From contig CM000151.3 of assembly GCA_000004695.1 (NCBI GenBank), forward strand, positions 352,001-416,000: a stretch of 64,000 nucleotides of DNA, given 5' to 3'. Source of the DNA: Dictyostelium discoideum (lineage: Eukaryota). Under the pieces are notes generated by a model. The model saw only the letters and a program-made list of their open reading frames with translations. It was not told the origin of the DNA and did not search any database. Of the stretch, positions 28,081-64,000 are shown in pieces. The stretch's first letter is position 1. Each line of letters opens with the position of its first letter. A program made the position numbers and the translations under genes.

Positions 28081-28084
28081 AGAA

Positions 28085-28735
28085 AAGATGGATATTATCA
28101 CCTGGTACTGCAAATGACCATGAAGCAATCAATATTATCAATCATTTAATAACTAATCACAATAACACATCAATCAATCAATTCCCAAACTGGTCAAAAG
28201 TAAAATCAAAAATTATTAAAACTCTAAAAAACTATCAATATAACAAAGACAAACAAACTCAACGTGCAAAACAAATACTATTAGAAAAAGCAGCAAAATT
28301 CAAACATCTTGAAGAACAATGCATCGCTGAATACAACATTATATGTAACAAAAACAAATTACATCAAAACCACACAAACATATTAAAAAACATATAAATG
28401 GAGAAATACCTAGCAAGTATCTATCAGCAATACTAAACAAAAGATCAAAAGATGCAAAAATTGCATCAATCTAATATGGTAACATCATTACATCCGACCC
28501 CGACCAAATTGAAAATGCGTTTGTTGAATTCTACACAAATCTATATAGCTTACAAATATGTTGTCCAATTACTCACCAGCTCATGCTAAACACATGGCCC
28601 ATCATAAAAAATGAATATTGGAATGGTTTAGACTCACCATTTATACAAGATGAAGTTGAAGCTGCAATTAAAACCTGTAACCCCAACAAATCACCCGATA
28701 CAGTTGAAATCTCCTGCGATAATAGATACATGTTG
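28085..28735 (+). mobile_element. inverted TRE3 ORF2 fragment (EN-RT linker region), frameshifted
   Basis: The plus-strand translation ...IENAFVEFYTNLYSLQ...NEYWNGLDSPFIQDEVEAAIKTCNPNKSPDTVEIS matches copy-1 ORF2 ...IEEEYVKYYSNLYDYKEDDPLSHYEMLENW...EILEVIKQLNPHKSPGPDGIP. The junction with the minus-strand RT fragment carries a 10-bp hairpin (gtagaatgca/tgcattctac, 28046-28074). Confidence 0.5.
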
Positions 28736-28739
28736 GGAT

Positions 28740-29017
28740 TGGTTTGGTATTGGGTTTGTTGAGTGGTTGTGGAGAAGTGTTTGTAGTGAAGTTGCATATG
28801 AATTCTTTTTGATGGTATTATTTGATGCTGGTGCGTAAATTCCAAGAATACCAATTGGTAATTGATTTGGAAATATAACGTTTGCTAAAATAACTCTACC
28901 ATCAATTGTTGATATGTGTTTGAGTTTGAGTGTGTTTGGGTTATGGTTAATGATGATTACACCATTTCCTCGTTTGGTGACAGAGATGATGTGATCGGGA
29001 AAATCATGTTTAAGTTG

Positions 29018-29020
<3 letters not shown>
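28740..29020 (-). mobile_element. TRE3 endonuclease-domain fragment
   Basis: The minus-strand translation ...IDGRVILANVIFPNQLPIGILGIYAPA matches copy-1 EN ...IEGRLIISDILIKDTTTRILAIYAPA. Confidence 0.5.
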
Positions 29021-29095
<75 letters not shown>

Positions 29096-29549
29096 TGGAT
29101 TAACAAGATTGATATATGTCCATCTGTGTTAATACGAGTTTTATTTAATATTTATTTAAAGGCTTATCGTTTAAGCTGAAGGGTTATTTTAATCATATGA
29201 ATTGATCAAAAGATATAATATTTGGGAGAGATGATTCTGGAATACAATAGTAATTAGCTGTTGTTTTTCTTAGCTTGATCGTTGAAGTGAGAAGGATCTT
29301 AGGATCTTTGAAGTTATTATGGTCTTTTGCAGATAAGTTTTTCAGATCTTTTGCTTTTTTGATGTATTCTAGAGTGGCCAATTTGTGCCATTTCTTTAGA
29401 AGGGAGCTGTATGATAGTGATTCATCTGTTAAAGGATCTTTACTGTATATTTGATTGCAAATTCAAATTCAAATGTTGTGGAGGATAAGGGCCATTAAGT
29501 TTCTATATGCGAATGATCTGGTTAGATCATAGTCTATTGCTTTATATTT

Positions 29550-30278
29550 TCATTCAAAGTATTCTTTGTGGAATCTGTGGTTGGCGTAATCTGCATTCAC
29601 TTCTTGATCTTTTTTGGCTGTCGGTGATAATTTTGGAGTTATTCTATTAATGAAATTGTTATTTTGCCTAATTCTTGTATGGTGCCAGTTTTTACCTTTG
29701 CCTGTGGTAATATAGATGAAATTTTTGAGTTTATTTATTTTTATGAATTGTTTTGTTTTCTTACATGAGAAGAACAGGTGGCCGTATGGGTCTTTGCTCA
29801 TATCTTCTTTGCAGAGTGGGCATTGTTTGTTGTGAAGGTAGTTTATTGGAAGGCATCTGGCATGGAATCTAAATATTGTGTCTCTTGTTTTAGGGTCTTT
29901 TATCTTCAGTATGTTGTTGAAGAGTTGATTATAGCTGTAGCCTCTTAAGTTTAGAGATGATTGGAATTCCGTTTTAGGGATGGTTGGATTTTGGTCTTGA
30001 ATTGTTGTATACCATTCTGCCAGTGAAAGTGGTTGTCCATTTTCGTTTTTTATGGATGTGAGATTATTGTTGAAGATTGCTTTTGTGATTCTTATTTTGT
30101 TCCATTCGTCTAAGTTTTCTTTTAGGTATCTGGATGTGAATTTGTTTTTTTGGATCTGATATTCCCAGCTTTTGTCATAGCTAAAAGTAGGGGGCTGGAA
30201 CATTTGGAATATAGAATTGAGACAACTGGCGCAGAAACTTTGGATCATAAACCAGTTCATCCTAGCACTAGAAACCAA
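29550..30278 (-). CDS. TRE3 ORF2 C-terminal continuation (CCHC zinc finger), separated from the main ORF by a stop or frameshift
   Basis: It contains FRFHARCLPINYLHNKQCPLCKEDMSKDPYGHLFFSC. In copy 2 the homologous region is contiguous with the upstream ORF, so copy 1 probably carries an inactivating mutation or a sequencing error near 30279-30296. Confidence 0.6.
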   Translation of the reverse strand: MVSSARMNWFMIQSFCASCLNSIFQMFQPPTFSYDKSWEYQIQKNKFTSRYLKENLDEWNKIRITKAIFNNNLTSIKNENGQPLSLAEWYTTIQDQNPTIPKTEFQSSLNLRGYSYNQLFNNILKIKDPKTRDTIFRFHARCLPINYLHNKQCPLCKEDMSKDPYGHLFFSCKKTKQFIKINKLKNFIYITTGKGKNWHHTRIRQNNNFINRITPKLSPTAKKDQEVNADYANHRFHKEYFE

Positions 30279-30296
30279 ACAAACAAACTCATCTCA

Positions 30297-32873
30297 TCAC
30301 AGAATAACTTGAAATCCACTAGCATTTTTGTTGTTTGGTGCCGATAAAAACCATTCGACTAATTTATTGATTTGGTTTAATTCCTCTTCCTTAAAGTTCT
30401 CTACATATGAATAGTAGGTTAATTTAGAGAGTGCGAATGCTTTGAGGATGTTGGTTTTGGTTTTGATTGTTGAGTCAGTGGTTTTCCATAGTACTAAGGA
30501 TGATCTTATTGTGTTTAATATTTCTGGCATTTTTCTTGTTATCCCTTTACCTGTGAAGAAGTATCCCAAGTATCTTTCTGGATTTGTAGATATTGGAATT
30601 CTTTGGTTGGTATTGTCTGGGTTGCCTATAAGAATTGATGAAGATTTGTCGATGTTTAGTTTTGAGGAAGTGGCTTTGCAAAATGAATTGAAGTGTTGTA
30701 GTACTAATTCAAGTTGTTGAGAGTCTGGGACCATTGAAGCCGAGTCGTCTGCAAAGCTTTGGAATTTCTCTCTGTGGTTGCTGTTGTTTAGAGGAAGGCC
30801 AGTAATTCGATCATCTTGTAAAATTTTTCTAGCTAAAGCCTCTATTACAAGGACGAACAGTGTGGGTGATAGTGGATCTCCTTGTTTAACTCCTCTTTTG
30901 ATCTCAAAGGGTATAGTAGTTCTACCATTAATTTCAATTCTTGCTTCAGATTTGGTGAGTAGATTCATTATCAGGTTGATTATATTGGTTGGAATGTTGA
31001 TGTGTTGTAGTGATCTAAGTATTGAACCGTGTGAGATCGAGTCAAAAGCTTTTTCGAAATCATATAGTGTAATTATTCCGTTAATTCTTTTATCATTACA
31101 ATAGTTGATTAATTCGTTCATTGATATGATATTATCTATAATGAATCTGCCTGGTACGAAACCTTTTTGATTGTGGTTGATCACTTTCGTTAGTATTGGG
31201 ATTATTCTATTGTTTATTAGCTTTGAGTGGATTTTATATATACAGTTAGCCAGTGTAATTGGTCTTCTGTTTTTGATTAGTTCGGGGTCTCCCTTTTTAG
31301 GTATCGTGATAATGAGGCCTTCTTTGTAATTTTTGCTAATTAGATGAGGATTTCTTAGAGTGTCGTTGAATGCTGAGGCCAGTATTGGAGCTAGTTTTTC
31401 TTTGTGTGTTATGTAGAATAAGTTTGGAATTCCATCTGGACCTGGAGATTTGTGTGGGTTCAGTTGTTTTATTACTTCTAGGATTTCTTGTGAGGTGAAT
31501 TCATTTTCAAGGTTGTCCCATGTTGAGTCCCTGGTCACTGTCCAATTTTCCAACATTTCGTAATGAGATAGTGGGTCATCTTCTTTGTAGTCATAAAGAT
31601 TTGAGTAATATTTTACGTATTCTTCTTCGATCAATTCCTGTTTGTTAATTGTTCTACCTTGTGCATCTTTTACTGCGTTGATGGTGAAATCATTGTGTCT
31701 TTTCTTGATTCTCGCGGAGATGTACTTGAGTGAGGTTTCTTCGCAATAGTTGTTCAATTCTTGTTTAAGTTGTTCTTCTCTTTTTTTAGATTCATTTATT
31801 GCTGAAAGGGTTGCGAAGGCTTGGTCTTTAAATTCTGTCTCTAGTAGGGAGATTAGATTTTTGATGTTTGCCTTATTGTTGTAGTCGTTTTGTTTTTGAA
31901 ATTCGGTGTATAGTTGTTTTATTTTGTTTAGTAAGCTGTTGAGTTGAGAGAAGGAAATAGAGTTATGGTTGGATGACAGCTCCCTTGAATAATCGTTAAG
32001 TAGGAAGTCTATTTTCTTAAGCATTATGCTTGAGAGGATTGAGGATTTTTTTAATCTCCATCTGCGCTTGTTCATCTGTATGTTGGGTAGAGTGAAAGTG
32101 GTTGATAGGAAGTTGTGATCTGATAGAGGTATGTCGTTAATTTTTGGGGGGATTAGGTTCCTTAAGTATAATTGGCTGTAGTTGATTAAGCTATTGTTAA
32201 GGTATATTCTGTCTAGTCTCCTTTCCAAGATTCTTGTGAGGTTATTGTTTGTGTTGTGTATCGTTCTTGAGAAGGTGGGTCTTTTATTTAGTTGGTCCAT
32301 ATCCATTAGGTTATTTGAAATTCTGATGGCTTCGATTACTGTGGCCATCTCATCTGGGGATTGTGTTGTCAGGTTGCCTTGGTCATCATTTGATGTGTGA
32401 TTGTCATTGAAGTCTAAACAGTTGAAGTCGCCTGCTATGATGTCGATGTTTTTATTAGGGTTAGACGTTAGGTTGTGGTATTGGTTGTTGAAGTGTTTAT
32501 TTAGTGTTGATGCTAGTGTTTTTCTTTTATCAGGTTGGGCCGGGGCGTATATGGCCAAGATTCTCGTTGTGGTATCTTTTATTAGAATGTCTGATATTAT
32601 TAGTCTACCTTCTATTATGAATATTGGTGAGAGTTTTATGTTTTGGTTGTTGTGGTTTAGTATTCCTATTCCGTTGCCTCTGTTGGTTGCGCTAATGATG
32701 GAGCCAGGAAATAGCTGGTGTGCTTGTGTTGCGTCGGCGTTGAGTTCATTGACTATGGTTAGTGCCAATGAGTTTGGGGGGGATTGGGATTTGATAAAGT
32801 CTGTTTTGTTTTTGAAGGAGGTGTCAGTACCCCAACCTCTGACATTCCATTGGTTGATTTTGATTACTACCAT
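30297..32873 (-). CDS. TRE3 ORF2 (endonuclease + reverse transcriptase), main part
   Basis: The 858-aa ORF begins MVVIKINQWNVRGWG (APE-type EN). RT motifs are ...PKKGDPELIKNRRPITLANCIYKI... and ...FADDSASM.... The minus-strand ATG at 32873 overlaps the end of ORF1. Confidence 0.8.
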   Translation of the reverse strand: MVVIKINQWNVRGWGTDTSFKNKTDFIKSQSPPNSLALTIVNELNADATQAHQLFPGSIISATNRGNGIGILNHNNQNIKLSPIFIIEGRLIISDILIKDTTTRILAIYAPAQPDKRKTLASTLNKHFNNQYHNLTSNPNKNIDIIAGDFNCLDFNDNHTSNDDQGNLTTQSPDEMATVIEAIRISNNLMDMDQLNKRPTFSRTIHNTNNNLTRILERRLDRIYLNNSLINYSQLYLRNLIPPKINDIPLSDHNFLSTTFTLPNIQMNKRRWRLKKSSILSSIMLKKIDFLLNDYSRELSSNHNSISFSQLNSLLNKIKQLYTEFQKQNDYNNKANIKNLISLLETEFKDQAFATLSAINESKKREEQLKQELNNYCEETSLKYISARIKKRHNDFTINAVKDAQGRTINKQELIEEEYVKYYSNLYDYKEDDPLSHYEMLENWTVTRDSTWDNLENEFTSQEILEVIKQLNPHKSPGPDGIPNLFYITHKEKLAPILASAFNDTLRNPHLISKNYKEGLIITIPKKGDPELIKNRRPITLANCIYKIHSKLINNRIIPILTKVINHNQKGFVPGRFIIDNIISMNELINYCNDKRINGIITLYDFEKAFDSISHGSILRSLQHINIPTNIINLIMNLLTKSEARIEINGRTTIPFEIKRGVKQGDPLSPTLFVLVIEALARKILQDDRITGLPLNNSNHREKFQSFADDSASMVPDSQQLELVLQHFNSFCKATSSKLNIDKSSSILIGNPDNTNQRIPISTNPERYLGYFFTGKGITRKMPEILNTIRSSLVLWKTTDSTIKTKTNILKAFALSKLTYYSYVENFKEEELNQINKLVEWFLSAPNNKNASGFQVIL

Positions 32874-34116
32874 TATGAGATGATATCGATCTCCTCTTGG
32901 GAGTCGTATAGCTGCGGTTTGGATGGTGAAGGGTAGATACTCTCTATGAAGCTCTCAATGATTCCTTTCCTTTCTTTATTGACAGGTGTCTTAGGGGTGG
33001 ATGGGATGTAAGGGTTGCTTCTGTTTATTGTTGGTGAGAGTTGGGTGACCTCGTTGTTTGAGTGGATTTCCTCGTTCTTGCGTTTATGTGATGGAGGGAT
33101 GTTTGGTGTCTTCTCTCTGTTTTCCGAGGATGAATGGATGTTAGTGCTCGTTTTGTTGGTATTGTCTTTTTGGATGGCGTTGGATGTTGTGGTAGTGGTT
33201 GTGGTGGGTTTGACAGATTGAGATTCTGCTTGGTTTTTGGGGGGAAGAGGTTGAGAGGACTTTTTTGATTGGGCTTTTTTCTCTTGGGTTGATTGTTTAT
33301 CAGACTGATTGTTTGCTGGGTCATTTGTTTGTTGTTGTGGTTTTGGTTGAGAGGATTTGATTGCTATCCTGTTTTGGGTGTTGGGAGGATCATCTGTCAT
33401 CTCATCTTCTAATGGTTCTTCCGTGTTGTTTGACTCTACTTTCTTATTTTTCTTTTGTGAGGAGTAGGTTTTGGTGGCCGTTCTGATGGTAAAGTTGGCG
33501 ATTTCTGTATTGTGTTGGCCAGATTTCATTTGATCGCCTATTTTGCATTCTATTAGACCGAATACTAGGAGGTGGTAGGTGGAGTATGTAGTATGGTATA
33601 TTGCATAGGGTATTTCTTCTGCAAAGGCAGTTTTGATGAGGGCGTCCACTATTCCTGCCTTTTCTTTTGGAATTCTTACTCTTCCTGTGAGGACGTGGTA
33701 GTCTCTACTGGAGGTGATGAAAGTTCCCAATTTGCTTCTATCTCTAATGATATTTAGGAGAGATTGTCGTTTTTAATCATCAGGTGTATCATTTTTCTAG
33801 TTCCTTTGCCTATGTATATCTTGTCGATTGGGATATCGTAGTTTGAGAGTGTTTTTCTCATTTCTTCTAACCCCATGAGATCCATTTTGGGGAATTCGAG
33901 TGTAATTGGGTAGAATCCGTTGTTTTTCTCGTAGGTTGAGAGCGCAGTCATGTTCAATATGGTCTCGCAGTATTTGGAGATGTCTTTGAGGCCTATTGAT
34001 AATTTGGGGTAGGTCTCCTTTATCTCTGCTGTTTTTGTGGAGAATTCCTTAATGAAGTTCTCTGATGCCTCGTCCATATGGGGGGCCATTTTAGCCGCGT
34101 CTGCGTAGGAATTCAT
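32873..34116 (-). CDS. TRE3 ORF1 (two frames: 33754..34116 and 32873..33730)
   Basis: ATG at 34116 starts MNSYADAAKMAPHMDEASENFIKEF... There is a frame change near 33730-33754, after which the basic, Thr/Gln/Pro-rich ORF1 continues to 32873. Confidence 0.55.
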
Positions 34117-34365
34117 CTCGATGGGATTCCTTTGAATCGGCGATTTGGTAAGTTAGATCTGTAGATCGTGGTGGATTGGTGATTTTTTTTGAAAGATTGG
34201 TTAAAATTGACCGAGATTAAGGATAGAAAAGGATGAATTACTTTTCACGTGTATCTTGTATCCTCTTGATCGCGGTACGGTTTTTTTTTCTCTTTTTATT
34301 GAAGTAACATTTTTCACGTGTATCTTGTATCCTCTTGATCGCGGTACGGTTTTTTTTTTAAGTTT

Positions 34366-34397
<32 letters not shown>

Positions 34398-34412
34398 CAG
34401 CAACTTAAAAAG

Positions 34413-34486
34413 TATTCAGAGCGGGAATCGAACCCACGACCTAATCCGTGTTAAGGATTCGTGATAACCGACTACACCATCCGAAC
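34413..34486 (-). tRNA. tRNA-Val (anticodon AAC)
   Basis: The minus-strand sequence is GTTCGGATGGTGTAGTCGGTTATCACGAATCCTTAACACGGATTAGGTCGTGGGTTCGATTCCCGCTCTGAATA. It forms a cloverleaf with a 7-bp acceptor stem (two G-U pairs), a TTAACAC anticodon loop (AAC), AGGTC in the variable region, and a GGGTTCGATTCCC T-arm. A T5 Pol III terminator follows immediately (CTTTTT). It closely resembles eukaryotic tRNA-Val(AAC). Confidence 0.85.
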
Positions 34487-34514
34487 TAATCTATAAAAAT
34501 TATTTTTAAACCGT

Positions 34515-34782
34515 TGTAATAAAGCTTGTTAGCTTTATAAATATATATAATTAATAATTATATAATTGAATAATACTTTGTTATCTTTATTTAATATTAA
34601 TTTATATTTATAATATTCAATATTGTTTATAAAATTATTCTTTAGTATTTATATTATTTATAATGAGTTGACAGTATTATTATTATTATTATTATTATAT
34701 TATTTAAATGTGTGTCAACTATAATTAGTAATGTAATATGCATATTTAATATCTATTAATTTTATAGAGTAACTTTATTACA
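34515..34782. repeat. 3' LTR (relative to the minus-strand element)
   Basis: Identical to 36887..37154. Confidence 0.85.
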
Positions 34783-35379
34783 TATCCCCCCCTTTTAGTT
34801 GAAAAAAATTTTTCAATCTTTTAATATAAAACACATCATGATTTTTAATATTATCCAATACTAATTTGAATTTTAAATCGCTAACTCTCTCATGTACTTT
34901 GAAAAGACCTTCCCAAGATTTATTGAGCTTTACTGGACCAACAGTGGATTGTAAATAGACATAATCTCCTACTTGAATATTTGAACGAGAAACTTTTTTA
35001 TTAATTTGTGATAATTGGTCTTTACCAAGATTATCCTTAATGAGACAAGGACGTTTGAGGTTATTATTTACAATTTGGGCGAAATTATGAGCAAAATCTA
35101 ATCTTGATAAATTTGTACATGGATTTCTTATTAATGGTTGAATTGAGGTTATTTGTGATTTAATTATTGAATTCTCTGTTTGATTTAATGATATTGATTT
35201 TAATGGTAAATTTGATGTTATTGGTGAATCTATTGGTTCTTGGAATAAGAATTCTGGAATATCGTAATCTATTGGTAGTTGTTCTTCAATAGTTGGATAC
35301 GATTTGATTGATAGTATATGATGAGAATTAAAATTTTCAATTAAATGATCAGTATCTGTTAATAATTCTGATTTTGATG

Positions 35380-35410
<31 letters not shown>

Positions 35411-36705
35411 TGAATAATCAGATACTGTTTTAAATATAGTTTGTATACATGGTTGGGTTTCTTTAGATATTAATTTGGTACCAACATTGAATTCAAGATT
35501 CTTAATGATCATTTCTTTAAAATCAATGACTAAATTTAATCCAATTATTGTATCAATGCCAAATATACAATCAATTGATGTATCATTATCTTTAACAACA
35601 TTAACTTTAACTCTAGCGAATGCTTTACCTAATTTAATTGTTGTGTTACTTATTCCAATGATTTTGATTTCATTATTTGATGCTGATTTAACAGAATATT
35701 GTTTATTTTCAATCTTTAATTTTAACTTTTTAGCAATACTTTCCCAAACAATAGTAAGTGATGAACCAGTATCAATCAAACCTCTAACATTTTTATTATT
35801 TATTAATAAAGCTGCATTCATACTATCTATTCCAATTGAATTAATTGTACTATTATTAACCATTGTAATTGCATTAGTGCTATGATTATTATATGATTGT
35901 TTATTCTCATTATAATTATTCTTTTTATCTTTAGACCAACACTCTTGAATTACATGACCTTTCTTTTTGCAATATTTACAAAATTTTGTGATTGAATTTA
36001 CTTGATTTTGTGGTGCTTTATAAGGGGATGATTGTGGTGACATTTGTGGTGATCGATTATAATATTGATTTTTAAAAATTGGTGTTGAAATTTCTTCAGA
36101 TTCAATTGATTGTTGTTCGTTTTGAGATGTAACATATTGAGGGGATGTTGCAGAATAACCAGAACCCGAACCTAGATATCTTTGATTACCAAATTCTTGC
36201 AACGTCTTTGCAACTAATTGACCAGTGTACATTGATCTACCTTTGATACGAATTGAACCATCTTCACAAGACTTTGCAATATCTATTGCTCTTTTTAATG
36301 ATTTTGGTGCACATTTTGTAATTTCAATACCCAATTCAGTACCAACAGCTGAATAAAACAATTGTATTTTAAACTTTTCTGAAATATCAACTGCTGAACA
36401 TTTTGATAGAAATTTACCAATTAATATATCTAATGTATTGTATTTATATTCTCCCAACTTTGTTAATTCTGTTAAATCATCACTATCACCAATATCAAAA
36501 GCATCTTTAAGATCTTCAATTATCTCCATTGCTGTTAAGTCTGTATCCAATGTTGCGGCATATTCCAATGCATTGTTTCTTAGTTTTCTAATAATATCAG
36601 CTTTCGATATTTCCTCGCCATGAATTAGTAAGAGTAAGTGTTTGAATTTACGAAATGATAAACCTTTTCCATCACCCGAAAAAATTACGTTTTCATTATT
36701 ACTCA

Positions 36706-36706
<1 letters not shown>
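34778..36706 (-). CDS. LTR-element polyprotein remnant: Gag (CCHC) - aspartic protease - integrase C-terminal region
   Basis: ATG at 36706. It contains the CCHC knuckle CKYCKKKGHVIQEC and the protease motif LIDTGSSLTIVW. The C-terminal ...VGDYVYLQ...KLNKSWEGLFKVHERVSDLKFKLVLDNIKNHDVFYIKRLK resembles the Ty3/gypsy integrase C-terminus (GPF/Y...VFHVS.LK). No RT, RNase H or IN core lies between them. Confidence 0.7.
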
Positions 36707-36776
<70 letters not shown>

Positions 36777-36886
36777 TATTAAATTAAATTTAATCTAATG
36801 TAAAATTTTAATTGATTGAATAATTTGATAACTTTATATTTATAGTATATTTTTTTTTTTTTTTTTTGAAAGACGATGTCGCCAAA

Positions 36887-37154
36887 TGTAATAAAGCTTG
36901 TTAGCTTTATAAATATATATAATTAATAATTATATAATTGAATAATACTTTGTTATCTTTATTTAATATTAATTTATATTTATAATATTCAATATTGTTT
37001 ATAAAATTATTCTTTAGTATTTATATTATTTATAATGAGTTGACAGTATTATTATTATTATTATTATTATATTATTTAAATGTGTGTCAACTATAATTAG
37101 TAATGTAATATGCATATTTAATATCTATTAATTTTATAGAGTAACTTTATTACA
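36887..37154. repeat. 5' LTR (relative to the minus-strand element)
   Basis: Identical to 34515..34782. Confidence 0.85.
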
Positions 37155-37412
37155 CCGTAATAATTATTAAAAATAGTTTAAAAGAATCATCCAAGTTGGC
37201 ACTTTTTTGTAATTACAAAAATTATATATGGGGACTCATATAAAATAATATGAACAATTTTGAAAAGTGCACTTAGATAGTTTTTATAATAACTAAATTT
37301 TTTTTTTTTTTTTTTGAGATATTTCATTATTTCCGAAATAATTTTTAAAATAAATTTTTTTTTTTTTTTTTCTTTTTTAAAAAAAAAACAATGGATAGAG
37401 ATAAAAATTATA

Positions 37413-40448
<3,036 letters not shown>

Positions 40449-51903: not shown

Positions 51904-51934
51904 ATGAGTAACAACAGTAATAGTAATAATAGTA

Positions 51935-51991
<57 letters not shown>

Positions 51992-54636
51992 TAGTAATAA
52001 ATGAGGATGAAGATGGCAATGAATTAGAGAAAAAGGATTTAAAATCAGTTAAAGAGATTGCTCAATCATATGGTCTATCAACAAACAAATTAAATAAATT
52101 AGAAATCATTGAAAAGATTAAATCAGTTAAAAGAAAAAGAGATTATGAAGAAAAAGAAAATGTTAATTCGTTTAATAAAATTATTAAATTAACAATTACA
52201 GATAATATTGAACCTTCTGAAATACTATTTTGGAAATTATTTAGAAACATAGTAATTTATAAAAAGATATTCTCGTTTATGGATAAACGATTCTCAATTA
52301 ATTATGATTCAATGTCATCAATATCAAATCTTATAAACAATAATCAATTCAATATATTAAAAGAAAAAGTTTATAGAAATTGTAGATATTTACATTTAAC
52401 AACTCACGATTTGTATGATAAAATTAATGATATTTCTTGTTTGGTGAAACTATTTTCAAATATTAAAGATGACTATCAATTCTATAGAAACTTTTTTAAT
52501 AGTGATAATGGTCGTTATCTTTTAGCGACAAACATATCAACAGCATTAATTATATCAAAGAATTTAGAGATTTATAAATTATATATAACTGAATTCAATT
52601 ATGAGCCAACAGAAACAGATCTTATTTATTCAATTATAATAGGTTCACAAAAATTCATTAAATATATATTAGAATTAAATTCATCAAAATCATCGAAATC
52701 ACCATTTTATAATATTAATATTCAAAAATTTTATTTAAATGAATCATCATATTTTAATTTTCAAAAAGATAAAATATTTAAAGGATTACTATTTTATTTA
52801 AATAATAATAGTAAACAAGTATTTACAATAGATAATCTTTATGAATTTATTATTTATAGAAACGATAATGGATATGAAATTAATGAAAAATCAACATTAA
52901 AAACATTAATCACAATTTGTAAATTAATTTTAAAATTATATCCATCACCAACTATTGAAACAAAAACAAGCGAATTATTTAAATCGGTTCCAGATATTCA
53001 AGAAATTAATGGTTTTATTATTGAAAAAATGATTGATAAACAAATTTTAAAATCAAAATTAGATAATCCAATTTATTATAATAATAATAATAATAATAAC
53101 ATTGAAATTAAAAAGTTTATAATTAAATTATTAAATTTATATTATAAAACATTTATATATATACCAACAATTTTATATTTATGTTATTATGATTATGATG
53201 ATAATGAAAATTATCATTACTATTTCAAGCAATTTAATACTGACAAGGATGAACTGGAAATTGCATTTAGATTTGGAGATTTTAAAATTTTAGAACCTCG
53301 TGAAACTATTGATTATAAGAATATTTTACCAAGAGAATATAATTTCTGGGAAAAAGAGAATCATATAGTTTTATTCTCACATTGTTTTAATAAAGAGAAA
53401 AAGATTAAATTCATTGATCAATTGATTGAAAGAAATAATCAAAAGCCAGAATTGAATTTCGAAAATATTGTCTTCAATATGATTGTAATGAATGATGATA
53501 TTGAATTATTAAAATACTTTTCAAATAAAATTGGTTCAATTCTACCAGTCTATATTAATATTTCTGATTTTTCAATTTCTCCAACCTTTTTAATAGAATC
53601 AATTGAAATGTTGGACTATTTATTTAACAATCATAGAAAATACTTTATTGATAGAGAACTTATAAATAATTATAGTACATTTTTTAAAAATGTACAATTA
53701 TTACAACACTTTGAATCGTTATTATCAAAATTTAAACTTGACAATCCGTCGATCATTGAAAAGGATCCAATTCCTTTTATAAAAACTATAGATTTTAGTA
53801 GTATTTTATATTATAAAAAATACAAAGACTTTCTTAATTTTGCAAAACACTTTGCTACAAATTCACTATACAATAATGATGAATTAGATCGTATACAATT
53901 ATTAATATTATTAACTGATGCTGAATTATCATCTAAACAAATGGTCAACACAGAAACACTTGGAAATTTATTAATTTTTCCACACCACAAATCAAATCTA
54001 ATAGATCAAAGATCAAATAAACCATATTCAAAAGAATTTTTAAAATTAATTGAATGGTTATTTAATAACTACAATCATTTAATTGAAAAGGGTGGTCATC
54101 TATATCACAATAAAAAACACCATTACCATCTTCTTATTACACTAGATAGATTAGATCTCAACAACAACAACAACTATTGTTATAATAATATTGAAAAAAT
54201 TACTTACCTAATGGATATAGTAAATAATTCAACACCATTTTTATATGAAGCCAATAATTTTAAATTTTTAAATTGGTTTTTAACAATGATTGAAGATTAT
54301 CATTTTTCATCCAATTCAACAAATAATGATGAAAAATTAAAAATTAAAGCTTTAACAAAATCATTTCTTAACTATATTGTAGGCAATTCAAAATTACAAA
54401 TACTTGAATATGTTCATCAAAACTTTGGTTTCATTTTAAAAAAAGATTCAAATGGTGGAATATTACCAATTAAAGAATTAAAAGAATTCTTAATTTTATC
54501 AATTGGTTCATATTCAAATTTTAGTTCAATTAAAATTTCAGAATTTCTTTTTCAATTTATTACAATATCAAAAAGTGAATTTGAAAAGAAATCAAATAGA
54601 ATATCAAAACTAATCTTTGCAAATAAATTTAATTAA
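51904..54636 (+). CDS. intact family paralog (910 aa)
   Basis: ATG at 51904 starts MSNNSNSNNSSNNNN..., followed by the SAP-like motif and conserved blocks. It is the shortest intact member. Confidence 0.75.
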
Positions 54637-54924: not shown

Positions 54925-55452
54925 TCAAACATTTGAATGAGGATTATCAATTTCATACCATGCTTCTTCATTATTATCGTCATCTTTAAACATTTCAATA
55001 AATTTCAAACCTGATTTCTCTAATACTTTTCTTGAAGCTATATGATCTTTGTCAGCAAATGCACATATCTTTTCAATTTTTAAAATATTGAAACCATAAT
55101 TTATAAAGAATTGAGTTGCCTCTGTAGCATACCCTTTACCCCAATATCTCTTAATAAATCTATAACCAATATCATAATATGACTGACGACCATTAATATT
55201 ATTTTCAATTTTTAAACCTGCCCAACCAATAAATTCATTGGTTTCTTTTATTATTACTGCCATACGACCTATTCCATTAAGTTTATATTGATTTTGTATA
55301 CCTTTGATTGCAGCTCTACATTGATCGATATTAGTAACTGCACTTTTTAAATATTGATGAACTTCTTGGTCTGAATCTAATTCAAATAGATTTTCATCAT
55401 CATTGCTTTCTAACTCTCTAAAATAAAGACGTTGGCTTTCTAGTTTCGCCAT
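54925..55452 (-). CDS. GNAT-family N-acetyltransferase (RimJ/RimL-like), intronless, 175 aa
   Basis: True ATG at 55452. Motifs are ...IGWAGLKI...GYRFIKRYWGKGYATEA...FADKDHIASRKVLEKSGLKF (acetyl-CoA-binding Q/RxxGxG/A-like). Confidence 0.7.
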   Translation of the reverse strand: MAKLESQRLYFRELESNDDENLFELDSDQEVHQYLKSAVTNIDQCRAAIKGIQNQYKLNGIGRMAVIIKETNEFIGWAGLKIENNINGRQSYYDIGYRFIKRYWGKGYATEATQFFINYGFNILKIEKICAFADKDHIASRKVLEKSGLKFIEMFKDDDNNEEAWYEIDNPHSNV

Positions 55453-55589
55453 TTTATGTTTGATGATTGCGCAATCATTACTGAAAATAAAAAAAAAAAA
55501 AAAAAAAAAAAATAATTAATAAAAAAAAAAAATTAAAAAAAAAAAAATTGATTTGATATTTTTTTTTTTATTTTTTTTTTATTTTTTTA

Positions 55590-56520
55590 AATATACTCTT
55601 TCTTTTATATCAACCAAAAATTTAATTCAATTTTCTTAAAACTAATTCCATCGATATTAATATTTAATAAAAAAAAAAAAAATTTAAAAAATGAAAATAA
55701 TTCTTTTCGTTTATTTTTTCATTTTGTTCACAATAAATTATAAATTAATAATAATAATTATTATTTTTTTTTTTTTATTTTATTTTTTTTTTTTTTTTTT
55801 TTTTTAGAAACACACATATACTTGGTTAGATATTTTTTTTTTTTTTTAAAAAAAATTACTAGGGGTAATGATATATGAAAAAATAAAAAATGATTAAATA
55901 TTAATTTTGACCAATCAAAACAATAATTGCAATGATAAACTTTTAAATTTTAATTGGTTGGATGAAATCAATTTTTAAAGACGACCAACTCGTCAGTTTT
56001 TTTTTTTTTTTTTTTTTTTTTCATGAAATCTCGAGATATTAATTCTACAGTTCTTTGAATTCGCTAGAAGATATTATTTTTTTTCCTAAATACCTATCAT
56101 TTGCTTTCTTTTTCTTTTTCTTTTCTTTTTTTTATTTATTTTTATTTTTTTTTTTATTTTTATTTTTTATTTTAATTTTTTATTTACTTTAAAATAAAAA
56201 TTTTAAAATTATTTTTATATTTTTTATTCCTGTGTAGAAATTATAATTCTAAAAATGTATTATAAAATTTTACTTATATTTGCATTATTAATTTTTGTTA
56301 ATATTAATTTTGCTTCTTCTGAATTTAAAAAAAATGGTAATAATTATTTGAAACAATTAAAATATTAAATATATAAACGATTTGCTTTACTGATATTATT
56401 TTTATTTTAAATTTTTTTTTTTTTTTTTTCTTAAAATTAGAAACTGAATCTGCGACTTTAAAATCATTATATGCTAGTTATTTAATGCAAAATAACAATA
56501 ATACTAATTATAATAATACC

Positions 56521-56578
<58 letters not shown>

Positions 56579-56738
56579 GTAATAATACTAATATTTATAA
56601 TGATTCAGTAACAAAGAATAAATGTAAAAATAAGAATGAATTGACAGTTGGTATAATTGGTGGTGGTATTGCAGGTCTTTATGCTGGTATGTAATTTATT
56701 AATGATTATTATAAAATAATTTTTTGAAGGTATTAACC

Positions 56739-56770
<32 letters not shown>

Positions 56771-58750
56771 GTATGATTTTCGATGATTTAGGTATTGATT
56801 ATACAATCTTAGAAGCCAATAAGGAAAGAGTTGGTGGAAGAGTTTATACTCATAAATTTGATGATCATAAATATTCATATACTGATCTCGGTGCTATGCG
56901 TATTCCATTAACGCCATTAATGGATAGAATTGTATCAAACCAAAATTATTCATTATTTAGTAAATTGGCAAAAGGTGGATATCAAATTCCAACTGTACCA
57001 TTTTTAATGAGTGTTAATAATGAAATTAGTTATTATAATGGTATTAGAGTTTTAAAAGGTTCCCCAGTTTTAAATCCATCCGATCCATTTAATTATAGTG
57101 ATTCAAATAATGGTGGTCCAGGAAAAGGTATTCCAGACGAGTATGCAAATCGTACAGTTGACTCTTTAATTCTCCCAGTATTTTATCAATTCATTTACAA
57201 TTTAACAGTTGATTTTGATAATGGTTTTAAACAAATGTTAAAATATGATAGCTATTCTGCAAGAGATTATTTAAAAACATTCCATAATTATCCAAATTCA
57301 GTTGTGAGTATTTAAAAAAAAAAATTAAATTTATTAAAATATATAAATATTAAATTATATTATTTTTTTTATTTATTATTAGATTGATTATATTGAAAAT
57401 TTATCAACAAATACTGGAAGATTAGATCAATCATCTATTACTGAATTATTAATGAGTGTTTTTGATTTTAGTGGAGAAAAATTCGTTTGTGTTGAAGGTG
57501 GTACAGGTCTTATTGTTAAATCAATGAGTCAAATTATAAAGAAAAAAGTTGAAATGGGTAGTTTTGTTACTAAAATTTCAAAATCATATGATAAAAAGAA
57601 TAATGAAATCGATGGATTAAATGTTGAAGTAGTAAGAGATTCAAACTTTGGTGGTAGTGATACTGAAATATTGAAATTTAAACATGTAATTAGTACTACA
57701 ACTTTACCAGCATTACAAAGAATTGATACAAGTGATTTGAAATTACCATTGAAATTAAAGGTTGCAATTCGTTCACTTAAATACACTGGTGCTATTAAAC
57801 TTGCAATTAACTTTAAATATCGTTGGTGGGAAGATAGTGAATTTATGAGTGGTAAACCAATTAGAGGTGGTTCTTCAAATACCGATCTTTTACTTCGTCA
57901 AGTTGTTTATCCATCATATGGTATCAATAATGGTACAAAAGGTGTTAGCGGAGTTTTATTAGCAAGTTATAGTGGTGGTTTGGAATCAATCAGAGTAAGT
58001 TGTGAATAACATTATTATGTTTAAAATAATTAATATTAATTTTTCTTAAATTTTATAGATTAGTAGTATGATTGGTAAAAAAGATAAAGAAAGAAAACTT
58101 TTAAATATAGTTTTAAGAGATCTTGCTGAAATCCATAATGTTGATTTAAAGAAATTAAAAAATTTATATAAAGATCATTTCTTCCAAAGTTGGGATAATG
58201 ATGAATTTGTAAGTATTAAATTTTAATAAATATTTATTTTATTTTTGAAAATATTAATAAATTTTAATTTTATTTTAAAAAAAAAAAACAAATATTAGTC
58301 ATCAGGTGCTTTTGCATTATTTTCAATATCTCAATATACTGAACTTTTCCCAAGTACTGGACAATCACATGTTGATGGTAGATTCCATTTATCAGGTGAA
58401 TTAACCTCGGTTCATCATGCATGGATGATTGGTGGACTTAATAGTGCATATAGATCAGTTGATTTAATTTTAAAGAATGAAGGATTTGAAGATTTACGTA
58501 TCAAATTAAGAAATAATTGGGGCACTATTGAGCAAGCTGAATATCCATCATTAGATTGGTATAAATACGACTCTGATATTAATCATTATAATATTCAAGG
58601 AAAATCAATTGAAAAATTATATTAAATAAATCAAAAAATTACCTATATATTGCTAGTTTATTTTCATTCTCATTTTAAGTTTATTTTATTTATTTATTTA
58701 TTTTTATTAGAGGAATTCCTCTTTTCTTCTTAGAAATTAATTAAATTTGG

Positions 58751-58790
<40 letters not shown>

Positions 58791-59344
58791 TTTAATTGGT
58801 GATTATGTATTTTTTAAAATTTTTTGGAAGTTAAAATTAAATTTAATTTCTTTTAAATTAAAAATATAATTTAAAATTAAATTAAATATTGATTTTAATT
58901 CATCTAATTCTTTAATTATAATTTTATAATGTCTAATTGATGTTAATGGTGAAGAAAATATATTTTCAAATAAATATTGATTAATTGTGTAACAAGATCT
59001 CAAAAACATCTTGTTAATACTAATATTTATTTAATTTCATGAAATGTTCTAAACAGAACATTTAAAAATAACTATTAATATTGAATTAATAATTCAATAT
59101 TAATTATTACTAATTTAATTTATTTTAATAAATTGTTTCATTTTATATAATAAACTCACTAAACACAACTAAATAATAATTCAAAAAAATAAATAATAAT
59201 AATTTAGAATATAGTTTTGTTTCAACATTTTATTATAACACATACAATTCAGAAAATAATAATAATTTATTTTACTGTTTTGTTTAAAGGGGTTTTCTCC
59301 CGTTGTAATAAAATTTAATTAATTTTAAATTAAATTTAATTTTC

Positions 59345-59379
<35 letters not shown>

Positions 59380-60407
59380 TTTCACAAAAAGGTTTTCATA
59401 ATAGATATTAGATACCAGATATTAAAAATGTCACACAAAATCACCATATAAAATAATAATATAAATTTAAAAATAATTTAATTAAAAAGAAAATAATAAT
59501 TAATTAGAATAAAATTAAAATAATATAATTTTGCAGTTTAAATCGGATCTAACCCTATAGGCTGAGGTTGGAGTAGTTAACAGATTTGAGTTCGCTCAAA
59601 TCTGAGGACTATAAAAAGAAACTAGGTTTCTAATTCAACCTCAGTAATAAATATATACAAATAATAAAATCACGATAGGGCTACGGTCATCACTTAAATA
59701 TATGTGTACATTTATTTCTTAAAATAATTATTTTATTAAATAATTTATTTTAAAAGGATGTCAACTAATAATAATAATAACAACAATAATAATAATGAAG
59801 ATATTGATAATGATGAATCTCAACAACAGGATAATGAGGAACAACAACTTCAACAACCACAGGTATCAACATTCAATGAACAGCAATGTCAAATAAGGGA
59901 ACAGCAGGAAAAACTAACACTGATGACACTGACCACCAGTTGTTACAAATTGAAATTCGTTCGTAATGTAATTCATCATTATTATTTGAAGAGGTACTAT
60001 ATTCAATGGATATATTCATTGGTAGTGGTGGTGGTCGATGTTGTTTATTATATGAATAAAAAATAAAATCGCTATAAGTTAAATGTAAATACTTAATTGA
60101 TTTATTATTTAATAAATTTGAAAATGAATTAATATTAAATAAACCATGGCAGTCTAATTTTGTTATTTCAATTGATGTATTTAATTATGAAAATAATGGT
60201 TTAAAATAATTTGAAAACATTTCTTTACTTTGATTTATGGTCTTAATTTAATTTTTATTTTTTTTCATCATCACAGTAATCATCCGAACCATATGCACTA
60301 TCACTATGTTGTCTATAATAATGATTGTTAATCAAATCTTCTATTCTAATGTTATATTTAAAATTTTTAAAGATTTACTTGAAATTAATGAATTCATCAT
60401 TTCTTTT

Positions 60408-60438
<31 letters not shown>

Positions 60439-60454
60439 TTTTTTTTTTTTTAAA
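55590..60454. repeat. tandem segmental duplication unit A (about 4.9 kb; unit B = 60455..beyond window end)
   Basis: Upstream flank, gene and downstream flank of the amine-oxidase locus all recur with a 4.87-5.14 kb offset. Unit B carries an extra insertion of about 410 bp at 60709-61120. Confidence 0.65.
56255..58625 (+). CDS. flavin-containing amine oxidase (LAAO/MAO-like), copy A, 6 exons, signal peptide
   Basis: The exons are 56255..56336 (MYYKILLIFALLIFVNINFASS signal), 56441..56686 (poly-Asn; GIIGGGIAGLYAG FAD Rossmann motif), 56771..57303 (ILEANKERVGGRVYTH), 57383..57994, 58059..58208 and 58299..58625 (SGELTSVHHAWMIGGLNSAYRSV). The donors are GTAATA, GTATGT, GTGAGT, GTAAGT and GTAAGT. 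The phases are consistent (1,1,0,0,0). Confidence 0.75.
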
Positions 60455-61394
60455 TAAACTTTTTTTATATCAAATTTAATAATTTAATTCAAATTTTCTT
60501 AAAACTAATACCAATTTTAATATTTATAAAAAAAAAAAAAAAAAAAACTAAAAAAAAAGAAAATTCTTTTCATTTATTAAAAATTTTTTATTTTGTTCAC
60601 AAGAAATTAATAATTATTTATATTATTTTATTTTTTTATTTTTTTATTTTTTTTTTTTAGAAACACACATATGCTTGATTAGATTTTTTTTTAAAATTAC
60701 TAGGGGTAATTGTTGAACATTAACACAATAATTTAAATAAATGATTTATTAGTTTAAAATACTCATGTTTTATCAGAATCTTGTAATAGAAAAATAAAAT
60801 TAAATTAAATAAATAAATATATAAATAAAAATAAAGTAATAAGTTGATGTTATCGACAATATCTATAATTTATTATGAATGTTTTTTTATAGTTGAAAAT
60901 TTTTACTTTTTATATTTGAGATTTAAAAATATTTTTATGAGTTTTTCAATCCACATTAAAAACTCACCACGTCGCTTTTTCCCACCTAGGTGAGAAAAGT
61001 CTAATTATATAAACATAAATTATTTTAGTTTGCGAGCGAGATTGTATTCTAATTTAATATCTTGATAAAACATAATTTTATTGTAACAATTTAATTATTA
61101 CATAATTATATTACAACAGGTAATGATATGAAAAAATGACCACTCGAAACGATAAATTAAATGGTTGGATGAAATCAATTTTAAAAGACGACCAACTTGT
61201 CAGTTTTTTTTTTTTTAATATTATGAAATCTCCAGATATTATTTCTACAGTTCTTTGAATTAATTAGAAGATTTTTTTTTTTCTATCATTTGATTCTTTT
61301 TCTTTTCTTTTTTTTATTTATTATTATTTTACTTTAAAAATTTTAAAATTATTTTTATATTTTTTATTCCTGTATAGGAATTATTATTCTAAAA

Positions 61395-63679
61395 ATGTAT
61401 AAAAAAATTTTACTTATATTTGCATTATTTATTTTAGTTAATATTAATTTTGCTTCTTCTGAATTTAAAAAAAATGGTATTAAATATTTGAAACAATAAA
61501 AATATTATATATAAAACGATTCAATTTACTGATATTATTTTTATTTTAAATTTTTTTTTTTTTAAAAATTAGAAACTGAATCTGCAAATTTAAAATCGTT
61601 ATATGCTAGTTATTTAATGAAAAATAACAATAATACTAAATATAATAATAATGATAATAGTAATAATACTAATATTTATAATGATTCAGTAACAAAGAAT
61701 AAAAGTAAAAATAAGAATGAATTGACAGTTGGTATCATTGGTGGTGGTATTGCAGGTCTATATGCTGGTATGTTATTTATTAAAAGTATGATTATTATAA
61801 AATTATTTTTTGAAGGTGTTGACTTTTTTTTTTTTTTTTTTTTTTAAATCAAGGTATGATTTTCGATGATTTAGGTATTGATTATACAATCTTAGAAGCC
61901 AATAAGGAAAGAGTTGGTGGAAGAGTTTATACTCATAAATTTGATGATCATAAATATTCATATACTGATCTCGGTGCTATGCGTATTCCATTAACGCCAT
62001 TAATGGATAGAATTGTATCAAACCAAAATTATTCATTATTTAGTAAATTGGCAAAAGGTGGATATCAAATTCCAACTGTACCATTTTTAATTAGTGTTAA
62101 TAATGAAATTAGTTATTATAATGGTATTAGAGTTTTAAAAGGTTCCCCAGTTTTAAATCCATCCGATCCATTTAATTATAGTGATTCAAATAATGGTGGT
62201 CCAGGAAAAGGTATTCCAGACGAGTATGCAAATCGTACAGTTGATTCTTTAATTCTCCCAGTATTTTATCAATTCATTAACAATTTAACAGTTGATTTTT
62301 ATAATGGTTTTAAACAAATGTTAAAATATGATAGCTATTCTGCAAGAGATTATTTAAAAACATTCCATAATTATCCAAATTCAGTTGTGAGTATTTAAAA
62401 AAAATTTAATTTAAAAAAATATATTTATATTAATATTTTTTATTATTAGATTGAATATATTGAAAATTTATCAACAATTAGTGGAAGATTAGATCAAACA
62501 TCTATCACTGAATTATTAATGAGTGTTTTTGATTTTAGTGGAGAAAAATTCGTTTGTGTTGAAGGTGGTACAGGTCTTATTGTTAAATCAATGAGTCAAA
62601 TTATAAAGAAAAAAGTTGAAATGGGTAGTTTTGTTACTAAAATTTCAAAATCATTTGATAAAAAGAATAATGAAATCGATGGATTAAATGTTGAAGTAGT
62701 AAGAGATTCAAACTTTGGTGGTAGTGATACTGAAATATTGAAATTTAAACATGTAATTAGTACTACAACTTTACCAGCATTACAAAGAATTGATACAAGT
62801 GATTTGAAATTACCATTGAAATTAAAGGTTGCAATTCGTTCACTCAAATACACTGGTGCTATTAAACTTGCAATTAACTTTAAATATCGTTGGTGGGAAG
62901 ATAGTGAATTTATGAGTGGTAAACCAATTAGAGGTGGTTCTTCAAATACCGATCTTTTACTTCGTCAAGTTGTTTATCCATCATATGGTATCAATAATGG
63001 TACAAAAGGTGTCAGCGGAGTTTTATTAGCAAGTTATAGTGGTGGTTTGGAATCAATCAGAGTAAGTTGTAAATAACATTGATTAAGTTTAAAATAATTT
63101 AATATTAATCAAATTAATTTTTCTTAAATTTTATAGATTAGTAGTATGATTGGTAAAAAAGATAAAGAAAGAAAACTTTTAAATATAGTTTTAAGAGATC
63201 TTGCTGAAATCCATAATGTTGATTTAAAGAAATTAAAAAATTTATATAAAGATCATTTCTTCCAAAGTTGGGATAATGATGAATTTGTAAGTATTAAATT
63301 TTAATAAATATTTATTTTATTTTTGAAAATATTAATAAATTTTATTTTTATTTTAAAAAAAAAAAACAAATATTAGTCATCAGGTGCTTTTGCATTATTT
63401 TCAACATCTCAATATACTGAACTTTTCCCAAGTACTGGACAATCACATGTTGATGGTAGATTCCATTTATCAGGTGAATTAACCTCGGTTCATCATGCAT
63501 GGATGATTGGTGGACTTAATAGTGCATATAGATCAGTTGATTTAATTTTAAAGAATGAAGGATTTGAAGATTTACGTATCAAATTAAGAAATAATTGGGG
63601 TACTATTGAACAAGCTGAATATCCATCATTAGATTGGTATAAATACGACTCTGATATTAATCATTATAAATTATATTAA
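61395..63679 (+). CDS. flavin-containing amine oxidase, copy B (tandem duplicate), 6 exons
   Basis: The exons are 61395..61476, 61573..61767, 61854..62386, 62450..63061, 63137..63286 and 63377..63679. Copy B is more than 97% identical to copy A in exons 3-6. Exon 2 has a shorter Asn tract, and exon 6 lacks 24 nt (NIQGKSIE) in frame before the stop. Confidence 0.7.
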
Positions 63680-64000
63680 ATAAATCAAAAAATTACCTAT
63701 ATATTGCTCGTATATTTTAAGTTTATTTTATTTATTTATTTATTAAAGGAATTTTATTTTTCTTTTCTTCATAGCAATTAAATAAATTTATTAAAACTAC
63801 AAAAGTTATATAGAAAATAAAAAAATAAAAGTAAAAAAAAAGAGGCGACAAACCCAGCGCCGCATAAAATTACTTTTCACCACTTTAATGCTGAAATTTT
63901 TACATCCATGTGTTTTTTTTTTTTTTTTATTATCGAAGAAATTTATTTATAGTAATAAAATAAATTCGGATTATTATTTAATTGGTGAGTATGTATTTTT

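Follow-up and report, generated by a model that had tools for sequence, protein, structure and literature searches.

Termini of the form TGTNR belong to the long terminal repeats (LTRs) of Gypsy elements and to Ginger elements, for which they have been documented in Ginger1, and the Tdd-4 and Tdd-5 elements have 5-bp target duplications (PMC2836005). In Dictyostelium discoideum, solo LTRs have been described for Skipper-1 (10 copies) and DGLT-A (11 copies) (PMC5006619). The locus we investigated carries two short insertions with ends of a similar kind, here called el408 and el960. Both lie in a tandem duplication of an oxidase gene (copies A and B) at the end of a 64-kb stretch of D. discoideum DNA (contig CM000151.3 of assembly GCA_000004695.1, contig positions 352,001-416,000; hereafter the window), which has ~20% GC and contains poly-Asn tracts. 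We propose that the duplication is real, that its two units have diverged through private insertions and indels, and that the coding region was most likely homogenised by gene conversion; to this account as a whole we assign a probability of about 0.78. All of its components are of known kinds, and the locus represents ordinary genome evolution and no new kind of system.

The orthologous loci of four further D. discoideum-group isolates (ACTFIW, ACTFIR, ACTFIY, and ACTFIZ) and of D. firmibasis were used for comparison, with one genome per strain throughout. The ancestral single-copy order, which is seen in ACTFIY, ACTFIZ, and at the main locus of ACTFIR, consists of an acetyltransferase gene on the minus strand, the oxidase on the plus strand, and a gene that we call S on the minus strand. 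In the window the oxidase is present twice. Self-BLAST detects a direct repeat ~5.07-5.14 kb apart (A 56535-58595 against B 61615-63672, 96.5% identity), with weaker homology that starts upstream at 55561/60426 and continues downstream to about 58745/63787 in a global alignment. The two copies are collinear and in direct orientation, and the homology between them covers the 5' intergenic region, the gene, its 3' flank, and the 3' part of S. Since two fragments of an S paralogue (S') lie in the spacer between A and B, the duplicated unit includes the 3' ~790 bp of S; without the later insertions it measures ~3.9 kb. In this lineage a segment of that size, reaching from ~95 bp upstream of the acetyltransferase ATG into the interior of S, was duplicated head-to-tail, and the resulting order is oxidase A, truncated S', oxidase B, intact S. 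A short T-run harbours the junction, which may have arisen through microhomology there, either by unequal exchange or by a replication-template switch. The check proposed in the first-pass annotation, a global alignment of A against B, together with the self-BLAST bears out its claim of a tandem duplication. The unit boundaries that it had placed near 55590 and 60455 were essentially right and are refined to 55566 and 60407-60426, and the different gene that it saw truncated at the junction is the S-paralogue fragment, which ends at ~60407-60426.

The same duplicated structure is found in an independent assembly, GCA_054883475.1 (ACTFIT), whose oxidase locus (L001) extends beyond the end of the window; over 12.6 kb the window and ACTFIT differ by five single-nucleotide polymorphisms and six homopolymer indels (99.66% identity). 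The AX4 reference gene set lists DDB_G0271470, DDB_G0271474, DDB_G0271476, and DDB_G0271478 in an order that matches the window, AX4 proteins from the spacer and from both sides of it are exact matches, and the gene 3' of copy B clusters with DDB_G0271478, which is gene S; the locus therefore belongs to chromosome 2 of the AX4 lineage. The duplication occurs in two independent assemblies or annotations and is no assembly artefact. For a collapsed or expanded repeat, or for two haplotypes taken as a tandem array, we find nothing beyond the general caution already voiced in the first-pass annotation, and against it stand the differences between the copies (28 substitutions in exons, numerous indels, and a private insertion in each unit), as well as an AX4 reference proteome that holds the spacer open reading frame (ORF), copy B, and the flanking genes. 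D. discoideum is moreover haploid. We consider an artefact extremely improbable; the tandem duplication is real in the organism.

The two copies had been described as nearly identical in exons and introns, which is too strong. Substitutions between A and B amount to 1.5% in exons and 6.3% in introns overall (plus 8 indels), with 1% in intron 5 and 11% in intron 3; divergence reaches 15% in the 3' flank and 13-19% in the 5' flanks, the latter figures being inflated to an unquantified degree since the aligned flanks are rich in AT and prone to indels. The exonic substitutions comprise 18 non-synonymous and 10 synonymous changes (dN/dS about 0.45), and both reading frames are intact. The earlier view that the duplication is recent holds for the gene bodies, which differ by 0.8-1.6%, but not for the 5' flanks, where the copies are strongly diverged and are not sisters in the tree. 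In neighbour-joining analyses the gene bodies of A and B form a clade with 100% bootstrap support, whereas the tree of the upstream sequence joins B to the ACTFIW and ACTFIR alleles (75%) and leaves A outside. Gene bodies that are ~99% identical, next to diverged 5' flanks that are non-sister in the trees, suggest gene conversion, which most likely homogenised the coding region. On our best reading of these sequences, the duplication itself would be older, or would have formed between diverged haplotypes.

Could the duplication simply be recent, with no gene conversion at all? The divergence of the flanks would then stem from rapid evolution with frequent slippage and from the poor alignability of AT-rich intergenic DNA, and constraint on the promoter of B would have been relaxed after the insertion. 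Consistent with this, the proximal upstream region of B forms a long branch relative to all alleles (13-19%), the flank differences include many homopolymer indels, and even the two near-identical assemblies differ chiefly in homopolymers. However, the ratio of flank to exon divergence is about 3x between strains and about 10-15x between A and B, the upstream and gene-body trees conflict, and intron 3 of B is nearer to the ACTFIW and ACTFIR alleles than to A. A simply recent origin is thus possible but not probable, and we retain gene conversion as the preferred explanation for the similarity of the coding regions.

That the units have diverged by private events is established by outgroup polarity. 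After the duplication, el408 entered the region upstream of B, el960 entered S', B lost 24 nt, and an AAT repeat in A expanded. As previously noticed, B lacks NIQGKSIE before the stop codon and has a shorter Asn tract, and the alignment confirms both differences (24 nt and 51 nt, respectively). All other alleles, that of D. firmibasis included, retain AATATTCAAGGAAAATCAATTGAA, so that the loss of NIQGKSIE is a derived deletion in B. The Asn tract of A is the longest of all alleles and has therefore expanded in A.

The extra segment upstream of B had been given as ~410 bp at 60709-61120, bounded by GGTAAT; it is confirmed here, with a length of 408 bp and slightly different borders (Table 1). 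Copy B reads GGGGTAAT followed by TGTTGAAC...TTACAACA and then GGTAATGATATG, and copy A reads GGGGTAATGATAT. The ends of el408 are perfect 5-bp inverted termini, TGTTG at 60711-60715 and CAACA at 61114-61118, which fall exactly at the GGTAAT borders; by our own calculation, the chance that the last five bases complement the first five is ~6e-4 for the given base composition. These termini and the 6-bp target-site duplication support the earlier description of the segment as a small insertion element. The alternative raised with that description was that copy A is a deletion allele; an ancestral 408 bp would on this view have been lost from A via recombination between two GGTAAT. A flanking 6-bp direct repeat would indeed also be expected from a microhomology-mediated deletion; however, inverted termini located exactly at the repeat borders speak against one, and the other alleles contradict it. 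An uninterrupted GGGG(T/C)AAT site, with no trace of the 408 bp, is present in copy a of ACTFIW, in the main and far copies of ACTFIR, in ACTFIY, in ACTFIZ, and in D. firmibasis; in copy b of ACTFIW the site falls within a deletion. Given the uninterrupted site in other alleles and in D. firmibasis, B gained the 408 bp by insertion, and we give next to no weight to their loss from A.

Both el408 and el960 have termini of the TGT..ACA type and short target duplications, which a DDE integrase or transposase of the retroviral type would have produced. Alternatively, el408 could have arisen only once, as a templated or filler insertion (for instance of DNA captured at a staggered break), with an inverted pentamer that is coincidental. 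Several negative results are in keeping with this alternative. BLASTN and nhmmer searches for a second copy of el408 returned only AT-rich noise in the 64-kb window and in 11 loci from the D. discoideum group (~210 kb), a sample of <1% of the genome, and exact-pattern scans found nothing in metagenome contigs (two patterns) or in viral contigs. Beyond the 5-bp termini, el408 has no long inverted repeats (score 32 against 22.7 +/- 4.1 for shuffled sequences, with 12 of 300 shuffles equalling it). Its core, which had been called palindrome-rich, folds no better than shuffles (z = -1.0), so that this description is not significant, and el408 has no homology to the LTRs of Skipper-1 or DGLT-A. Against a one-off origin stand the exactness of the 6-bp target duplication, the fit of the termini to the TGTNR integrase consensus (PMC2836005) together with the low chance calculated above, and the small fraction of the genome that was searched. 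Moreover, el960, which is located 750 bp away and has similar ends and a target duplication, is demonstrably multi-copy. We therefore regard a one-off insertion as quite unlikely and favour el408 as the putative product of an integrase or transposase. The sole ORF inside el408 had no match in an exact look-up or in a homology search. No published microRNA (miRNA) maps to el408 or el960, no tRNA gene or Rfam family was detected in the region from 58.7 to 61.4 kb, and sequence searches of the literature turned up only unrelated primers.

The second insertion, el960, interrupts the S part of the duplicated unit and went unnoticed in the first-pass annotation. The S' pieces are contiguous in intact S (...GATTAATTGAAATTC...), and in the spacer they are parted by an insert that starts with TGTAACAAG and ends with GTTGTTACA; the alignment places the stop region of S' at ~58800-58850. 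With the ORF that begins in el960 as query, a related protein was retrieved from another contig, and through it a second copy of the family in GCA_054883475.1 (Table 1). Because this copy lies at an unrelated locus and has its own target duplication, el960 is a genuine member of a multi-copy mobile element family. Neither el960 nor the 1163-bp copy scores above shuffles for inverted repeats, and el408 and el960 are unrelated to each other beyond AT-rich stretches. Within el960, a compound hairpin at 59560-59645 (GGCUGAGGUUGGAGUAGUU...CAGAUUUGAG-UUCG-CUCAAAUCUG...CAACCUCAGU) stands out from shuffles (z = -7.3) and matches no Rfam family and no published miRNA. The spacer ORF annotated as DDB_G0271474 (102 aa, ACTFIT_002117; window 59757-60065) begins in el960 and reads into S'; its annotation as a gene is probably artefactual. 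The second copy of the family sits within an array of zf-B_box/FNIP-repeat genes, and an integrase-domain (rve) gene is located at the start of the same locus (L010). A pair of TGTAACAA...TTGTTACA motifs at L010 14389-14847, considered as a further element, proved to be coding sequence.

Several observations weigh against our account. No second copy of el408 was found in the ~270 kb searched, so that the case for its mobility is a structural one. Its 6-bp duplication differs both from the 5 bp of Tdd-4/5 and from the 4 bp of the DGLT-A copy in the window, and it matches neither of the LTR families that could be tested (Skipper-1 and DGLT-A). Its presence in AX4 is deduced from the identity of the proteins together with the ACTFIT assembly. 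The conflict seen in the upstream tree carries 75% support only, and the inflation of the 5' flank figures mentioned above bears on the same argument.

Table 1. Features of the duplicated oxidase locus. Positions refer to the window unless a locus label (L001, L010) is given.
Feature	Position	Strand	Description
el408	60711-61118	+	408 bp, 18% GC, 271 bp upstream of copy B ATG; termini TGTTG...CAACA
GGTAAT, left target-site duplication	60705-60710		Flank of el408 in B
GGTAAT, right target-site duplication	61119-61124		Flank of el408 in B
GGTAAT, empty target site in A	55863-55868		Single; equivalent to the el408 site in B
Duplication unit 1	55566-60407	+	5' intergenic region, oxidase A, 3' part of S paralogue with el960; collinear with unit 2
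Duplication unit 2	60426-64000, runs off window	+	In ACTFIT continues to L001 13373, inside intact S
Duplication junction	60407-60426		S' interior (...CATTTCTTTT) meets T-rich start of 5' intergenic block, in T-run (three-way comparison)
Acetyltransferase upstream of A	54925-55452	-	Exact match to DDB_G0271470
Oxidase copy A	56255-58625	+	6 exons, 649 aa, signal-peptide-like N-terminus, Pfam Amino_oxidase PF01593
Asn (AAT) repeat surplus in A	56508-56560	+	~51 nt extra, longer than every other allele
NIQGKSIE, 24 nt	A 58590-58613	+	Kept in all other alleles and D. firmibasis; in B deleted between 63667 and 63668
S' relic, distal piece	58800-58987	-	3' end of DDB_G0271478 paralogue; 58851-58987 96% identical to L001 12782-12918
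el960	58988-59947	+	960 bp; 8-bp inverted termini TGTAACAA/TTGTTACA; 5-bp target duplication AATTG
AATTG duplication around el960	58983-58987 and 59948-59952		Basis: intact S has the empty site
S' relic, proximal piece	59948-60407	-	85% identical to L001 12914-13373; truncated at duplication junction
Oxidase copy B	61395-63679	+	6 exons, 624 aa; exactly KAM9951439.1 (ACTFIT_002118)
Gene S (DDB_G0271478)	L001 12584-14533	-	Intact, intronless, 649 aa, directly after copy B in ACTFIT
el960-family copy 2	L010 9164-10326 (GCA_054883475.1 CM142509.1)		1163 bp, 90-93% identity end to end; own duplication AGTTT

The six-exon structure reported for both oxidase copies is correct, and all introns are canonical (GT..AG). 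The exons are 56255-56336, 56441-56686, 56771-57303, 57383-57994, 58059-58208, and 58299-58625 in A, and 61395-61476, 61573-61767, 61854-62386, 62450-63061, 63137-63286, and 63377-63679 in B. The residues of copy B are those of AX4 DDB_G0271476, except that the 630-aa AX4 model is longer by six residues, LFIKSM, where exons 2 and 3 meet (window 61760-61780). The 624-aa splice form agrees with all other strains, and LFIKSM apparently represents retained intron 2 sequence in the AX4 model. The protein matches PF01593 (E = 3e-35, residues 104-599) and also PF13450, and carries the FAD-binding motif GGGIAG in its N-terminal part. With copy B as query, the closest solved structures are a Trichoderma L-lysine alpha-oxidase (5e-69) and the fungal L-amino-acid oxidase (LAAO) LAAO4 (5e-64), and snake-venom LAAOs match at ~1e-27. 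The earlier identification as an amine oxidase is therefore right at the level of the superfamily, and LAAO-like is the more precise term. The N-terminus (MYYKILLIFALLIFVNINFASS) is hydrophobic and, by inspection, signal-peptide-like; the protein is accordingly best described as a predicted secreted, LAAO-like flavoenzyme of putative activity. The gene identifiers of the locus received no mention in the literature searched.

The number of oxidase copies differs between isolates. ACTFIY and ACTFIZ have one copy each. In ACTFIW there is a tandem duplication that is bounded differently and comprises the acetyltransferase, the oxidase, and part of S (L003 8685-16264), and ACTFIR has an extra inverted partial copy ~32 kb away (L005) that is nearer to the ACTFIY allele than to the allele at its own main locus. 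Differently bounded extra copies are thus present in three of the five D. discoideum-group isolates. In neighbour-joining trees the copies within a strain do not form orthologous pairs across strains, and the duplications are therefore either independent or heavily remodelled. These observations, from five genomes only, hint that the oxidase locus is a copy-number hotspot. At the main locus of ACTFIR (L004 ~12330-13480) there is also an insertion of ~0.9 kb between the oxidase and S, with GC-rich inverted repeats (e.g. GGGCTGTACTCAA...TTGAGTACAGCCC); the other strains lack this insertion, which may represent a further small mobile element. A GC-rich segment at 63842-63869 of the window (GAGGCGACAAACCCAGCGCCGCATAAAA), between the stop codons of B and S, is restricted to the AX4 lineage and occurs neither in the other strains nor 3' of A.

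Elsewhere in the window, a DGLT-A retrotransposon with an internal deletion is located 29 bp upstream of a tRNA-Val(AAC) gene on the minus strand (34412-34486). The 268-bp LTRs of this element (34515-34782 and 36887-37154) are 100% identical, with ends TGTAATAAAG...CTTTATTACA; within 34412-37154 the element has a 4-bp target duplication (CCGT), its ORF is DDB_G0271456, and the published DGLT-A primer-binding site is found 2 bp from the LTR. Downstream of the tRNA gene is a GC-rich island (30-40% GC, ~26000-34400) with TRE3-type non-LTR ORFs on the minus strand, namely an endonuclease/reverse transcriptase (30297-32873) and ORF1 (32873-33730), plus further fragments. The island is a typical tRNA-targeted transposon nest. 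At 20606-20630 (and 20669) the window matches the D. discoideum miRNA_can_D3-5p/3p with one mismatch; the 'D3' small RNA has been linked to the multi-copy thug-S element (PMC4894637). The first 54,700 nucleotides (1-54700) contain a large family of intronless genes of ~900-1050 aa, with many repeats at 75-89% identity. Examples are located at 37314-40448, from 41251, from 44924, and at 51904-54636, and a 910-aa member adjoins the acetyltransferase.

The account has little consequence beyond the annotation of a model-organism reference genome. For that annotation it means that DDB_G0271474 is doubtful, that the DDB_G0271476 model is apparently six residues too long, and that a further oxidase, copy A, lies upstream of B. 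The locus also offers a clean, fully polarised case of a tandem duplication that was later altered by two small mobile-element insertions, an indel at the C-terminus, slippage in a repeat, and probably gene conversion, and the insertion of el408 into the promoter of B provides a natural test of whether A and B are regulated differently. The differently bounded duplications flag the oxidase as a candidate copy-number-variable gene. If the hotspot is confirmed, it could reflect selection on an enzyme that produces hydrogen peroxide and acts against microbes or in kin interactions.

Among known enzymes, the oxidase resembles the L-lysine alpha-oxidase of Trichoderma viride and the fungal and vertebrate LAAOs (PDB 7c3i, 3x0v, 9enh, and 1f8r). 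The homology is full-length (residues 80-595) and includes the PF01593 domain, the N-terminal dinucleotide-binding motif, and a signal-like N-terminus. However, the Dictyostelium protein is only ~30% identical to LAAO relatives in the databases and carries, behind the signal peptide, an Asn-rich insert that is specific to Dictyostelium. As a pair, A and B resemble tandem duplicates under concerted evolution, with near-identical sister gene bodies between diverged, non-sister flanks; conversion between them is suggested by divergence and trees from a single genome per strain.

Among known mobile elements, miniature inverted-repeat transposable elements (MITEs) and the poorly described short Dictyostelium DNA elements 'thug' and 'DDT-S' share with el408 a small, non-coding, AT-rich sequence, a target duplication, and a location next to a gene. 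The first-pass annotation had asked whether el408 is a MITE, which the data do not support in that form. The terminal inverted repeats of at least ~10 bp that characterise a classical MITE are absent, the perfect inverted ends being only 5 bp long, and no second copy was found in the ~270 kb sampled. A long-inverted-repeat structure, as in a MITE or a Tdd derivative, is not significant against shuffles for either el408 or el960. The cut-and-paste elements Tdd-4 and Tdd-5 (Ginger2/TDD), compared here by description only, share with el960 duplications of 5 bp (AATTG, and AGTTT at L010, in the el960 family). Given these duplications and the TGTAACAA ends, mobilisation of el960 in trans by a Tdd-4/5-type transposase is plausible. 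However, the inverted repeats of Tdd-4/5 are 260-297 bp long, whereas those of el960 and el408 are 8 and 5 bp, and the duplication of el408 is 6 bp and not 5 bp.

The likeness of el408 to the solo LTRs of Ty3/gypsy elements, such as Skipper-1 (390-bp LTR) and DGLT-A (~268 bp, formerly 'H3R'), extends to several features. Its ends are of the form TG...CA, with TGTTG/CAACA fitting TGTNR; it has a target duplication of the 4-6 bp class and an empty site in relatives; and it is non-coding and of LTR-like size, although its 408 bp fit none of the lengths listed for D. discoideum LTRs (390 and 208, and 268 for DGLT-A). To compare el408 with Skipper-1, we searched D. discoideum assemblies for Skipper genes with the published RNase H and integrase sequences of this element (PMC5006619) and thereby reached two centromeric loci, where a Skipper-1 LTR immediately follows the polypurine tract (L008 from 12657, with TGTTAGAGACTC at its start). 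No homology of el408 was found beyond AT-rich background either to this LTR or to the DGLT-A LTR at 34515-34782, which rejects el408 as a solo LTR of Skipper-1 or of DGLT-A, and a full-length parent element was not found in the window or in the fetched loci. A bolder interpretation would combine a recurrent copy-number hotspot at the oxidase locus with undescribed families of short, integrase-mobilised elements, recently active in the AX4/NC4 lineage and represented by el408 and perhaps by el960; their members could be non-autonomous and moved in trans, or else be the solo LTRs of an LTR retrotransposon that is not yet catalogued. We put this forward tentatively and consider it doubtful. The integrase-type ends and duplications suggest that el408 and el960 are solo LTRs, or else non-autonomous elements that would be mobilised in trans, for example by integrases of the Tdd/Ginger2 type or of LTR elements, rather than classical MITEs with long inverted repeats.

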